From the IMG/VR virus record IMGVR_UViG_2529292985_000023: a DNA stretch of 6,296 bases; one strand, 5' to 3'. Source of the stretch: a virus. Lineage: Duplodnaviria; Heunggongvirae; Uroviricota; Caudoviricetes. Positions 2,835-6,296 of the stretch are shown here, piece after piece. Every line of letters starts with the position of its first letter. Position 1 is the first letter of the stretch. A model generated the notes under the pieces. The model searched no databases, was not told the DNA's origin, and saw only the letters and a program-made list of their open reading frames with translations. The translations under genes and the position numbers were made by a program.

Positions 2835-3062
2835 CTTATTGATTTAAATGGGATAATAGGAGCAATACACATAGGCGATAAGCTTTGTTTTTGTTGCCTT
2901 TTTTATTGTTCATTTTTTATAGATACCCCCAAAAGTACCCCCATATCTTTTTCCGCCCCTGAAATTTGGTTGTTATTCATACAGCATATCAGGCGGTAAC
3001 GCTCTCCCTTTAACCCACTTATTGTATGATAGTGCTATCCCACAATAAGGAATCAGCCAGCC

Positions 3063-3422
3063 ATGAGAATGACCAGTCGCAAAAAAGAGATACTTAGCTA
3101 CTTTGAACCGGATAACCTCGAATGGGTGACTGGTGAGATTGGTGCGCCGCCGTTCGATGTGTCGGGTGTGGCCTACCTGCTTCATGGCATGGTGTCGTTC
3201 GATAAGCGTCACCAGCTCGAATCAACCCGGCGCACACTGGAAAGCATGGTTGCTGGTGGACTGCTTGAGCGGGTGACAGTGTATGAATCGCGCCAGATAC
3301 GGCGCGGCGGTGATACTAACGCAACGGTCGTGCGCTACGGTTTACCCGGTCAGTGCGCTGTTATGCGCGATACTGGCGGCGCTGACAACGCAATATCAGG
3401 TGAATACATGCGGGTCAGTTAA
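3063..3422 (+). CDS. Hypothetical protein, 119 aa, no family recognised
   Basis: ORF with AAGGA 11 nt upstream of the ATG and an in-frame TAG 33 nt upstream; protein-like composition. 3' end overlaps the convergent gene by 8 bp. Confidence 0.5.
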   Translation: MRMTSRKKEILSYFEPDNLEWVTGEIGAPPFDVSGVAYLLHGMVSFDKRHQLESTRRTLESMVAGGLLERVTVYESRQIRRGGDTNATVVRYGLPGQCAVMRDTGGADNAISGEYMRVS

Positions 3423-3957
3423 TAGCCTGCAATCTGTCGTTGATGCGGCTCAGGTCGTAAACCCGGCGTTCAATATCCAGCATCAGGAAATTGTGGATCT
3501 CGGCCTGCTCAGGATTATCAGACTCTCTGGCCTGTAATAGCAATTCATTGTAACCATGCAAGCCGCCTGAGTTTTCCGCCGGGGTGGTGCCTTTCCCACG
3601 CAGGCAGCTAATGGGCTGATTACTCGTATCGTGTGTTTGCTTCTCCAGCACAATGACGCAATCCCACCAGTCGCCAAAGTCATACGTGTAAACCAGCTTG
3701 TCACCCTCATTCTGGAGCGCCGCCCATAGTGGCGTGATTGCCGCGTTACCCATGCTTTCATCCTCACCCCATACGCGATACTCGCTACCTGGATCACCTT
3801 TACGCCCTTTCTCGAACATATACAGGTGTTCGTCATTCCAGCCAAAAGCTAACTGGATCAAGGCATGAAGTTTACTAAAGGGGATTTGCTCTGGAACCAG
3901 CACACGCCGCCATATAGGTGGTTTGCTGTCTCGGATGGTTATCTTTAGCTGGTACAT
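3415..3957 (-). CDS. Plasmid pRiA4b ORF-3 family protein (PF07929-like; the family also annotated as IS1096 passenger TnpR), 180 aa
   Basis: N-terminus MYQLKITIRDSKPPIWRRVLVP...LHALIQLAFGW and the internal YDFGDWWD signature are as I recall for this family. AGGA lies 6 nt upstream of the ATG. Confidence 0.7.
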   Translation of the reverse strand: MYQLKITIRDSKPPIWRRVLVPEQIPFSKLHALIQLAFGWNDEHLYMFEKGRKGDPGSEYRVWGEDESMGNAAITPLWAALQNEGDKLVYTYDFGDWWDCVIVLEKQTHDTSNQPISCLRGKGTTPAENSGGLHGYNELLLQARESDNPEQAEIHNFLMLDIERRVYDLSRINDRLQAIN

Positions 3958-4077
3958 GCAAATCCTGAATAAATGCGAATCGGAAGGATAACGATACTGA
4001 CGTACTCACAATTCTGTAAAGGTGAATAAAGGAAATTTGCTTAATACGCATAAGTTACATGTGGAATAATCCCATAT

Positions 4078-4263
4078 CTACCTGCGCGGCGCTGGCTTCT
4101 TCCACTGGTAGGCAGGTGCTCGCATCATTTCGCGGAACCTGTCGCGCCGGGCTATATCGGCATTAACTGATCGTTCTATCTCCCGTTGATCTGCCTGTGT
4201 AAGCTGGTGGCCTCCGTGCTCAAGTTTGGCGATGGTCAATAAGGCTATTTCGCGTGGTGTCAT
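4078..4263 (-). CDS. Small hypothetical protein, 61 aa, basic C-terminus
   Basis: ORF with GAGGA 8 nt upstream of the ATG; same strand as the PerC-like and pRiA4b ORF-3 genes. No family recognised. Confidence 0.45.
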   Translation of the reverse strand: MTPREIALLTIAKLEHGGHQLTQADQREIERSVNADIARRDRFREMMRAPAYQWKKPAPRR

Positions 4264-4560
4264 ACGTCATATCCTCTGGAAGGATGAAACACGCCCGGAT
4301 TAAATTTCATTTTTCGCGGGTATAAAAAAACGATGGGGCGGGCAGTCCCGGATAGTCAGGGCTGTAGAGATTTGACTACCCCCTCCCCACTGTATTCAGG
4401 TTACTGCTATTCCGTTAAGCGCTGCTTACGGGGATAGCTGCGTTGTGATTTTGACCATTCAGGTCGCCGCTATTTCCTCACCGATTGGGTGCTACGCGCG
4501 CGCGTACTTGTCCCGAAATACCAGAAACCGCCAGCCAGAGGATGATTTCCCTCTGGTGGT

Positions 4561-4842
4561 CTACCTTTGCCTCTTGCCGCCATTTAACCGGAAGGCGTTA
4601 CCGTTCGGTTGCGCTATCCCCATGCGGTGTTGCGTTTCGGTAACAGCTTTATGCAGGTCGCCAAATTCCTCAACCTTCACGGGCGGGCGCTTCACGTTCT
4701 CCAGACACGTTTCACGGCGGCGCTTTATCCATTCCCGATCATCGTCCTCGGAGCATAACAGCATGACTTCCATCCATCGTGCGGCAGCTCTCCGGTATAG
4801 CCCTTTTGACTCCAGCTCTTCAGCTTTCCTGTCCCTTATCAT
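4561..4842 (-). CDS. PerC-family transcriptional activator homologue (PerC/Pch-like), 93 aa
   Basis: Translation MIRDRKAEELESKGLYRRAAARWMEVM...DDDREWIKRRRETCLENV fits the E-LE-GxxRRAAxRW-V...REWI-RR-C pattern I recall for PerC/Pch proteins. GAGAGG lies 6 nt upstream of the ATG. Confidence 0.6.
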   Translation of the reverse strand: MIRDRKAEELESKGLYRRAAARWMEVMLLCSEDDDREWIKRRRETCLENVKRPPVKVEEFGDLHKAVTETQHRMGIAQPNGNAFRLNGGKRQR

Positions 4843-4877
4843 TTCTGCCTCTCAGATTATATAGATAAGCAAAAAGG

Positions 4878-4992
4878 TGTTGGTTCAGTTGGTTCAATTT
4901 GTAAAGATCGTTGTTTTTATTATGTTTTTTTCTAAAATATTGAACCAACATCAACTCATTTTGAACCAACACAGCCCAGCTCTGAACCAACA
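4878..4992. repeat. Array of five copies of the 9-bp motif TGAACCAAC: two tandem inverted copies (GTTGGTTCA at 4879-4887 and 4888-4896) and three direct copies (4941-4949, 4962-4970, 4983-4991) phased at exactly 21 bp, separated by a 44-bp AT-rich spacer
   Basis: Read directly from the sequence; all five 9-mers are perfect matches. The array lies in the divergent intergenic region between the PerC-like gene and the RHH-like gene. Confidence 0.75.
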
Positions 4993-5057
4993 ACACAGCG
5001 ATAGCTTTGTGATTGGTCCGTTATTTTCTGGCTGATATTTGAGCGTATAACAGTGTT

Positions 5058-5076
5058 ATACAGTGGTATACTGTAT
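5058..5076. promoter_or_regulatory. Operator-like palindrome ATACAGT-GGTAT-ACTGTAT (7-5-7), preceded by tandem 10-bp units TATAACAGTG and TTATACAGTG (5046-5065); overlaps a -10-like TATACT at 5067-5072
   Basis: Perfect 7-bp inverted arms read from the sequence, 18 bp upstream of the ATG at 5094 on the plus-strand gene side. Confidence 0.4.
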
Positions 5077-5147
5077 GGATATTACTCACTGATATGGTCT
5101 TTGCAATGAGCAAATCTAATCTGATCGCGTTCCGCATCCCATCTTAA

Positions 5148-5549
5148 TTGCAGGATGAGTTTAATCGGTCTGTTCTCGCTTCTGGAGGGGATAAAACCTC
5201 CTGGCTTGTTGATGCGATTCGCATGAAGCTGGGACAGCCGGAAAAGTCTATTGATTCACGAATGCTTGGGCTGGTGGAGCGCATGGAAAAAGCCGCTGCG
5301 TCGCTTATTGCCGGAAAGCCGAACATCCCACCAAAGCCATATAACGAAACGGCAGTTATAAAGATCATTGCCGATACCATCCAACAGGGATTTGATAATG
5401 GGCGTGTGATAGCTGAACGGATCAATGAAGCAGGCTATCAAACAAAAGCTGGTAAAGCGTGGGATAAAGATATTTACAGCGCGTGGAAGCGTCAGGGAAG
5501 CAATGCTGAAAATTTAAAAGCGGTGATTGATTGTAAGGTCAGCGTATAA
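5148..5549 (+). CDS. Hypothetical protein, 133 aa from a TTG start; probably the downstream part of a ribbon-helix-helix-like regulator whose frame begins at ATG 5094 and is interrupted by TAA at 5145-5147
   Basis: Track ORF; no Shine-Dalgarno before the TTG. The same frame upstream reads MVFAMSKSNLIAFRIPS*, giving a beta-strand/helix/GG-turn/helix layout typical of Arc/CopG-type RHH domains across the stop. Confidence 0.5.
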   Translation: MQDEFNRSVLASGGDKTSWLVDAIRMKLGQPEKSIDSRMLGLVERMEKAAASLIAGKPNIPPKPYNETAVIKIIADTIQQGFDNGRVIAERINEAGYQTKAGKAWDKDIYSAWKRQGSNAENLKAVIDCKVSV

Positions 5550-5640
5550 ACATGAGTGCCCATTGGAAAGTAAGCGTACAGCCTGAACCGTCTGGTCAGA
5601 ATCTGACGAATTAGACAAAGTGGTGTCCACCAAATAAGTA

Positions 5641-6042
5641 GTGGGAACCAAAGTGTCAGATATGCAGAAAAATGTGAATCCCGGCAGGCGAAAAGGCTGC
5701 CCTAATTATCCTCCCGAATTTAAACAGCAGCTCGTTGCTGCCTCCTGTGAACCCGGGATATCCATCTCAAAACTTGCTCTTGAAAATGGCATTAACGCCA
5801 ATCTGTTGTTCAAATGGCGACAACAATGGCGCGAGGGAAAGCTGCTATTACCTTCTTCAGAGAGCCCCCAGCTACTTCCTGTGACTCTCGATGCAGCTGC
5901 CGAACAGCCAGAATCGCTCGCAGAGGATCCGGAAACCCTCAGTATCAGCTGTGAGGTAACGTTCCGGCACGGGACGCTCCGCTTCAATGGCAATGTCAGC
6001 GAAAAGCTCCTGACTCTGCTGATACAGGAACTGAAGCGATGA
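5641..6042 (+). CDS. tnpA: IS66-family accessory protein TnpA (orf1); GTG start at 5641, alternative ATG at 5662
   Basis: Translation ...PEFKQQLVAASCEPGISISKLALENGINANLLFKWRQQWREGKL is characteristic of IS66 orf1 proteins. Confidence 0.85.
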   Translation: MGTKVSDMQKNVNPGRRKGCPNYPPEFKQQLVAASCEPGISISKLALENGINANLLFKWRQQWREGKLLLPSSESPQLLPVTLDAAAEQPESLAEDPETLSISCEVTFRHGTLRFNGNVSEKLLTLLIQELKR

Positions 6043-6296
6043 TCCCGTTACCTTCCGGGACCAAAATTTGGCTGGTTGCCGGTATCACCGATATGAGAAA
6101 TGGCTTCAACGGCCTGGCGGCAAAGGTGCAGACGACGCTGAAAGACGCTCCGATGTCAGGTCACGTTTTTATCTTCCGTGGGCGTAATGGCAGTCAGGTA
6201 AAGCTCCTCTGGTCTACCGGCGATGGACTGTGTCTGCTGACCAAACGGCTGGAGCGCGGCCGCTTCGCCTGGGCCGTCAGCCCGGGATGGCAAAGT
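6039..6296 (+). CDS. tnpB: IS66-family TnpB (orf2), N-terminal 86 codons; 3' end outside the window
   Basis: ATG at 6039 overlaps the tnpA stop (ATGA). My translation MIPLPSGTKIWLVAGITDMRNGFNGLAAKVQ...GRFAWAVSPGWQS matches the IS66 TnpB family; it is absent from the ORF track because no stop falls in the window. Confidence 0.85.
   Translation, partial: MIPLPSGTKIWLVAGITDMRNGFNGLAAKVQTTLKDAPMSGHVFIFRGRNGSQVKLLWSTGDGLCLLTKRLERGRFAWAVSPGWQS

Follow-up and report, generated by a model that had tools for sequence, protein, structure and literature searches.

Satellite P4 has two sites in cis, ori and crr, with the same short repeats, which its primase-helicase recognises at both. This arrangement is also summarised in PMC6092414. 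The origins of phage-inducible chromosomal islands (PICIs) and SaPIs share a layout in which two iteron sets flank an AT-rich region, with at least two oppositely pointing iterons on each side (PMC6092414, PMC9371898). In the SaPIs, the C-terminal winged-helix domain of Rep reads iterons located downstream of rep (Qiao et al. 2022, PMC9371898), and the initiator is assumed to be loaded as two hexamers on either side of the AT-rich centre (PMC9371898). EcCICFT073's pri-rep-ori segment supports plasmid maintenance (Fillol-Salom et al. 2018, PMC6092414). Our direct reading of the EcCICFT073 origin placed it 3′ of the primase and revealed 9-mers of the form (C)TGTCTACC, set in tandem at 9 bp and also inverted, around AT-rich DNA. 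EcCIMP1 is a mobilisable 20-kb PICI of E. coli MP1, integrated at tRNA-Thr (Pick et al. 2025, PMC11773190). It is mobilised by the P22-like phage Kapi1, and its PerC-like protein EcCIMP1_025 repressed LEE1 in Citrobacter rodentium (PMC11773190). The description of EcCIMP1 (PMC11773190) names neither an origin nor iterons.

The stretch of DNA analysed here, 6,296 nt in length and referred to below as the window, represents the right end of a PICI of the EcCIMP1 family that has been cut by an IS66-family element. Positions 2849–4971 are 98.4% identical (blastn) to positions 8706–10836 of L028, a 30-kb region (NZ_CP139039 3557000–3587000) that carries EcCIMP1. This segment corresponds to the right-hand end of EcCIMP1 and takes in its PerC-like gene, EcCIMP1_025, along with the greater part of the repeat array described below, and on the basis of this identity the array was assigned to the EcCIMP1 island family. 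The window and EcCIMP1 agree in their gene order (hyp, PRiA4_ORF3, hyp, PerC). The two differ in that an RHH-like module replaces alpA_1 in the window island and in the truncation by the IS66-family element. The homology to EcCIMP1-family islands stops at 5570, where the IS66-family element begins; mobile DNA then spans 5571–6296, with an IS66-family tnpA gene at 5641–6042. On the other side, a mosaic of IS1- and IS3-type pieces occupies positions 1–2320 and is followed by a tyrosine integrase gene of which only the C-terminal fragment is present (2331–2834). The full set of island functions (int, alpA, primase-helicase, and transfer module) is not found in the window, and neither the open reading frames nor a domain search revealed a primase-helicase gene within the 6,296 nt. 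With the island interrupted after 5570 by the IS66-family element and a primase-helicase gene missing from the window, the array found here is probably an orphan without its cognate initiator gene. When the whole window was searched against the complete E. coli genomes in the collection, the same IS-disrupted arrangement was not found. In E. coli AR_0069 (L006 4022–4914), a pair of Panacea-domain genes is located between the PRiA4_ORF3 gene and the small PerC-adjacent gene, which suggests that the right end of the island is a variable cargo spot.

The array lies between a PerC-family gene on the minus strand (4561–4842; Pfam PF06069, E = 1.2e-30) and an RHH-like gene on the plus strand (5106–5549). 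The first-pass annotation had described an AT-rich intergenic region of about 250 bp; its composition was described correctly (35% G+C, compared with 50% for the window), while its extent has to be revised to 4843–5105, or 263 bp. An exact search identified five perfect copies of the 9-mer TGAACCAAC in the window, two on the minus strand (4879–4887 and 4888–4896) and three on the plus strand (starting at 4941, 4962, and 4983). The expected count was 0.07 and none of 200 dinucleotide-preserving shuffles gave five copies; a separate search of the window tolerated one mismatch. The five-repeat feature is real and strongly non-random. The two minus-strand copies form a PerC-proximal set (4879–4896) of tandem repeats with a 9-bp period, 37–54 bp from the PerC-like ATG at 4842. 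The distal set (4941–4991) consists of three TGAACCAAC(A) copies on the plus strand, oriented opposite to the tandem pair, and the repeat finder returned periods of 21 and 21 bp for these direct copies. Between the sets lies a spacer of 44 nt (4897–4940) with 15.9% G+C (84% A+T), the lowest G+C content of the region. The spacer starts with ATTTGTAAAGA, like that of the primase-proximal array of EcCIMP1, and by analogy with known origins it is a putative DNA-unwinding element. The inner iterons are 53 bp apart from start to start in the window and 52 bp apart in the relatives read closely, the difference being due to one extra T in a T-run; in several arrays of the protein-based IMG/VR scan described below, the distance is approximately 61–63 bp. 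Since the phased copies are one or two helical turns apart, they lie on the same face of the DNA. The minus strand reads TATAAT at 4856–4861 and a good −35 element is absent; a consensus scan of positions 4700–5250 detected neither a sigma-70-like site nor a terminator. The number, spacing, and orientation of the repeats, their distance from the PerC-like ATG, the same-face phasing (with steps of 11 or 21 bp and an inner distance of 52 bp in relatives), and the TATAAT hexamer all agree with what had been noted in the first-pass annotation.

We consider it likely that the repeats form an iteron field of the replication-origin type, belonging to an EcCIMP1-family PICI, and that TGAACCAAC is the iteron recognised by the primase-helicase of the island. 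This reading is based in part on the layout of the array, which agrees with that of the EcCICFT073 and SaPI origins, and in part on the genes next to which the repeats are found in relatives. In related islands, the first gene after the array is PerC, and the adjacency of PerC and the array is shared with loci of Enterobacter, Lonsdalea, Pantoea, Chimaeribacter, and Erwinia. The six PerC loci of other species that contain TGAACCAAC belong to Enterobacter adelaidei, Lonsdalea, two Pantoea, Chimaeribacter, and an Erwinia MAG, and their PerC proteins are 48–55% identical to that of the window in five cases and approximately 79% identical in E. adelaidei. In all six, the array fills the gap between PerC and the stop codon of a protein of 929–937 amino acids that combines a primase zinc ribbon with a Toprim domain and DUF927. 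Scanning IMG/VR for two tandem TGAACCAAC copies yielded 120 loci, among which were 87 arrays that have three or more copies on both strands. The great majority of these arrays (74 out of 87) are located 27–89 bp past the C-terminus of a DUF927 homologue with 64–100% identity. Seven arrays are PerC-proximal and six have neither neighbour, several of the latter lying near the end of the available DNA. None of the 48 isolated TGAACCAAC matches in IMG/VR adjoins a DUF927 gene or PerC.

An independent scan of IMG/VR, for which the query was the C-terminal stretch of 292 residues from the EcCIMP1 protein, yielded 80 loci with 78–100% identity. In 77 of these 80 helicase homologues, an array begins 24–38 bp after the stop codon, and in those 77 loci TGAACCAAC is confined to the array (approximately 3.8 kb per locus). 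A 78th locus, L214, has the same kind of array and falls outside the 77 because the position of its stop codon was wrongly assigned in the count. By comparison, many array-bearing loci lack a close homologue of the N-terminal primase part, and the same holds, taken one by one, for the upstream protein of approximately 200 amino acids, AlpA, the integrase, PerC, and the RHH-like protein.

Other co-occurring partners were also considered. Four of them were discarded because they do not track the array: AlpA, the integrase, the ejection protein, and the ~200-aa protein whose gene lies upstream of that of the primase. The N-terminal domain of the primase was rejected as the reader of the repeats because many array loci lack a close N-terminal homologue. 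It is also contradicted by the islands with a DUF5906-type protein, which share that domain and have iterons of their own. In the SEC470-type islands, the helicase part has been exchanged for the DUF5906 type and the N-terminal 350 residues alone are shared; the N-terminal primase domain is 68–72% identical between the DUF927 and DUF5906 proteins. The iterons of SEC470 (L001) read GGTA(C/T)AGGT and form two arrays approximately 1 kb apart (19556–19660 and 18446–18550). One of these arrays is found directly 3′ of the DUF5906 gene, with copies in tandem at 9 bp and inverted around AT-rich DNA.

The iteron sequence co-varies with the C-terminal tail of the putative initiator. A nearly invariant tail segment, SGRGYQRKSPRI, lies within MLTPPxSGRG(Y/F)QRKSPRIxGRQ in the other homologues, and this canonical tail is paired with TGAACCAAC in 77 loci. 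Two variant lineages, on which the covariation rests, have switched both. In L181, all ten copies of the array read TGAACCACC and the tail reads PSADGKKFQRKSPRI; in L204, all ten copies read TGAGACAAC and the tail reads SGRGYQGRV-REGGRQ. The respective counterparts of the tail segment SGRGYQRKSPRI are ADGKKFQRKSPRI and SGRGYQGRV-RE. The architecture is kept in both switched arrays, which are situated about 25–330 bp after the stop codon of the primase-helicase gene. Judged by their sequences, L181 and L204 are candidate natural specificity variants. A homologue with conservative tail changes (QKKGPRI, L225) retains TGAACCAAC, a point that counts against the origin-iteron reading.

The EcCIMP1 protein was compared with solved structures. 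Its residues 402–813 match PDB entry 8tch_A, annotated as 'Pathogenicity island protein', with an E-value of 9.8e-12 and, more weakly, 5dgk_A, annotated as 'Active helicase', the SCCmec Cch protein, with an E-value of 0.0066. We take 8tch to be a SaPI Rep-type helicase and, by way of this match, the helicase part of the Toprim/DUF927 protein is taken to be homologous to the SaPI Rep initiator. A self-loading helicase of this type would be provided by the protein of the relatives and not by the window. The last 150 amino acids of the initiator had no match in a profile search against PDB sequences, and for this reason a winged-helix reader is proposed for the DUF927 protein by analogy only.

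Most likely, TGAACCAAC is read by this fused zinc-ribbon/Toprim/DUF927 protein, acting as a self-loading initiator-helicase, and not by the products of the two neighbouring genes. By analogy with the SaPIs and EcCICFT073, the C-terminal region of the initiator would bind both oppositely oriented iteron sets. The initiator would then melt the AT-rich spacer between the sets, and the helicase would be loaded on either side of the opened spacer; binding, melting, and origin firing are all modelled on these known systems. The proposal of the first-pass annotation that the repeats could be origin iterons beside an AT-rich unwinding region is in this way well supported, as the array follows the DUF927 stop codon and co-varies with the tail of the DUF927 protein. 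Weighing against an origin function is the fact that the window copy does not lie immediately 3′ of pri-rep, in a window that has no primase-helicase gene; its sister copies in EcCIMP1, B1, and PKF4 do occupy that position. This kind of origin is already known, while the iteron sequence is previously undescribed for the EcCIMP1 family. In the running text of the searchable literature, as distinct from figures such as Figure 2a of PMC6092414, in which iteron sequences are listed, there was no mention of TGAACCAAC as an iteron.

The relationship between the window copy and these sister copies became apparent from EcCIMP1, which has two arrays. The primase-proximal array (L028 19276–19396) ends 25 nt from the TOPRIM/DUF927 stop codon. 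The second array (L028 10736–10856) lies just upstream of PerC, 8.5 kb away and inverted with respect to the first, and the DNA-ejection/transfer module sits between the two. E. coli B1 and PKF4 show the same two-array arrangement as EcCIMP1, and in L028, L029, L030, and L128 the arrays are 6.4–8.5 kb apart. A single plan underlies both arrays: a tandem set of two or three copies is followed by an AT-rich spacer of 43 nt, which starts with ATTTGTAAAGA, and then by copies at 11- or 21-bp steps. The second array shares this full plan, is inverted, and lies beside PerC; therefore, the array of the window is the PerC-proximal copy. When arrays next to an RHH-type gene (as in the window) were compared with those next to an AlpA-type gene (as in EcCIMP1), the three phased 9-mers were identical at 27 of 27 positions, and the two 12-nt spacers between them at 10 of 24, a difference that favours the iteron reading.

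The second copy may fire, may control the copy number, or may only persist. We put forward tentatively, as a possibility that falls well short of being probable, that EcCIMP1-type islands use a two-site replication system in which a second complete origin-like array is inverted 6.4–8.5 kb from the first. The second array would then either fire or pair with the first in the style of P4 crr or P1 incA, thereby setting the copy number, and such pairing would couple replication to PerC expression. The two arrays are located roughly opposite each other on the excised 20-kb circle. A two-site system is previously undescribed for PICIs, whose origin is held to be single and 3′ of rep.

Alternatively, the PerC-proximal array could be a non-firing auxiliary iteron cluster bound by the same initiator, which we regard as possible and yet rather unlikely. 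Such a cluster could act in cis like P4 crr, could act negatively like P1 incA by titration of the initiator or by pairing with the true origin, or could tune the putative PerC promoter that it overlaps. The presence of two inverted arrays per island at this distance, and the location of the tandem set so close to the PerC ATG, are consistent with this explanation, as is the finding that the DUF5906-type islands likewise hold two arrays of their own iterons. Many relatives instead have a single composite field of 10–12 copies, which points in the same direction. On the other hand, the second copy retains the whole origin layout, including the AT-rich spacer and the 52-bp inner distance, none of which would be needed by a mere titration site. 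It is also possible that the second array has simply been kept by a recent rearrangement. SEC470 and FORC_031 have a TGAACCAAC array beside PerC together with a DUF5906 primase and no DUF927 gene, so the array can persist without its presumed cognate protein; the co-existence of TGAACCAAC with a primase that has different iterons counts against the origin reading.

The composite fields (L016 3676–3934, L162–L173, and others) are situated between pri-rep and PerC and contain 10–12 iterons each. In these fields, the PerC-proximal tandem triplet is set off by a stretch that is G+C-rich and not AT-rich. As composite fields occur in many relatives, two units may be the ancestral state.

Quite improbable, in our judgement, is the explanation that the repeats serve the two divergent genes, PerC-like and RHH-like, as a transcriptional operator or activator array to which either of their products, or AlpA, would bind. 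It would account for the intergenic position of the array and for the TATAAT hexamer without a good −35 element in DNA where no consensus promoter was found, and Pch/PerC proteins have been reported in the literature to bind AT-rich DNA, while no Pch recognition consensus is reported in the literature searched. The distribution of the repeats argues against it. Among the E. coli relatives, a constant PerC side and array are accompanied by a changing rightward gene: this gene is RHH-like in SEC470, FORC_031, B1, and PKF4 and AlpA-like in strains 32-4, AR_0069, and MP1, and the rightward genes of A29 are unrelated. Listed by locus, the array is kept next to a different rightward gene in L005, L006, L007, and EcCIMP1. 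Of the 120 array-bearing loci, just a few have an RHH-like homologue, and at most such loci the homologues of the RHH-like protein and of AlpA are missing or variable; the RHH-like gene belongs to a variable module that is unlinked to the repeats. As for PerC, it is not adjacent in the 74 of the 87 IMG/VR arrays that abut a DUF927 gene, and TGAACCAAC is missing from 12 of the 18 PerC loci of other species. The suggestion of the first-pass annotation that a regulator encoded by one of the two neighbours binds the array is accordingly not upheld, since the array persists with other rightward genes and PerC is absent at most loci. Against the NCBIfam ANR (AraC negative regulator) model, the PerC-like protein of the window reaches 31.1 bits, slightly below the cut-off of 32, and this near-threshold score fits the published repression of LEE1 by the near-identical EcCIMP1_025.

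The rightward gene was found to start at 5106, where an RHH-like gene had been annotated; it is, however, not intact. Its codon 14 is TAA in the window (5145–5147) and GAA in SEC470, FORC_031, and B1, and we list it as a pseudogene. To the eye, its product looks like an RHH protein. No family was assigned to it in Pfam, PHROGs, or NCBIfam, apart from a weak match to a PHROG of unknown function. Just upstream of this gene, positions 5045–5078 contain ACAGTG(T/G)TAT as two direct units of 10 bp, together with the inverted repeat ATACAGT-N5-ACTGTAT; three of the direct units are present in PKF4 (L004). From their sequence and position, these repeats are probably the RHH-like gene's own operator and unrelated to TGAACCAAC, and the existence of a separate repeat and palindrome for this gene also argues against the operator explanation for the array.

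That the repeats are arm-type sites of the integrase, or some other signal for recombination or packaging, is extremely improbable: att regions do contain short direct and inverted repeats and the array lies within the last 2 kb of the island, but it is still approximately 2 kb from the island end, it tracks the helicase gene, and the integrases of array loci are 25–87% identical to that of EcCIMP1 or were not detected.

With an origin-type iteron field as the preferred reading, the EcCIMP1 satellite family gains a candidate origin, a candidate iteron, TGAACCAAC, and a candidate segment for the specificity of the initiator tail, SGRGYQRKSPRI. The iteron and tail variants with TGAACCACC and TGAGACAAC would offer a natural system for the evolution of origin specificity and incompatibility in satellites. 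A repeat array beside a virulence-regulator-like gene such as PerC need not be the operator of that gene, which is of relevance to the annotation of motifs near pch and perC. The split or duplicated array raises a modest question on the organisation of PICI origins.

Compared with the described systems, the array of the window shares with the SaPI origins the opposed sets of short iterons and the AT-rich centre that they flank. In the EcCIMP1 family, the likeness to the SaPIs extends to iterons directly downstream of rep and to an initiator that is taken to be a helicase. The SaPI iterons are 5–6 nt in length, as opposed to 9 nt here, and the present host is Gram-negative; a winged-helix reader is a feature of SaPI Rep and is putative for the DUF927 protein. 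P4 is similar in that the same repeats occur at two sites several kb apart in a satellite of approximately 10–20 kb. Two such clusters of one repeat, kb apart, are present in L028, L029, L030, and L128, while the window has one cluster only. The P4 alpha protein belongs to a different helicase family from the Rep-like DUF927 protein, and the P4 repeats are octamers of another sequence. In P4, the second site has to be present in cis for replication. EcCICFT073 and the EcCIMP1 family are alike in being integrative phage satellites and in having int, alpA, primase, and PerC genes. The origin of EcCICFT073 differs from the array studied here in the iteron, TGTCTACC instead of TGAACCAAC, and in the initiator, a primase-family protein of 584 amino acids instead of the 918-aa Toprim/DUF927 protein of EcCIMP1. 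It is found 3′ of its initiator gene, whereas the window copy is upstream of PerC, and, unlike EcCICFT073, the EcCIMP1-type islands have two separated arrays. What the EcCICFT073 origin and the array of the window have in common are 9-mers, some of them in tandem at 9 bp, arranged as two opposed sets around AT-rich DNA.
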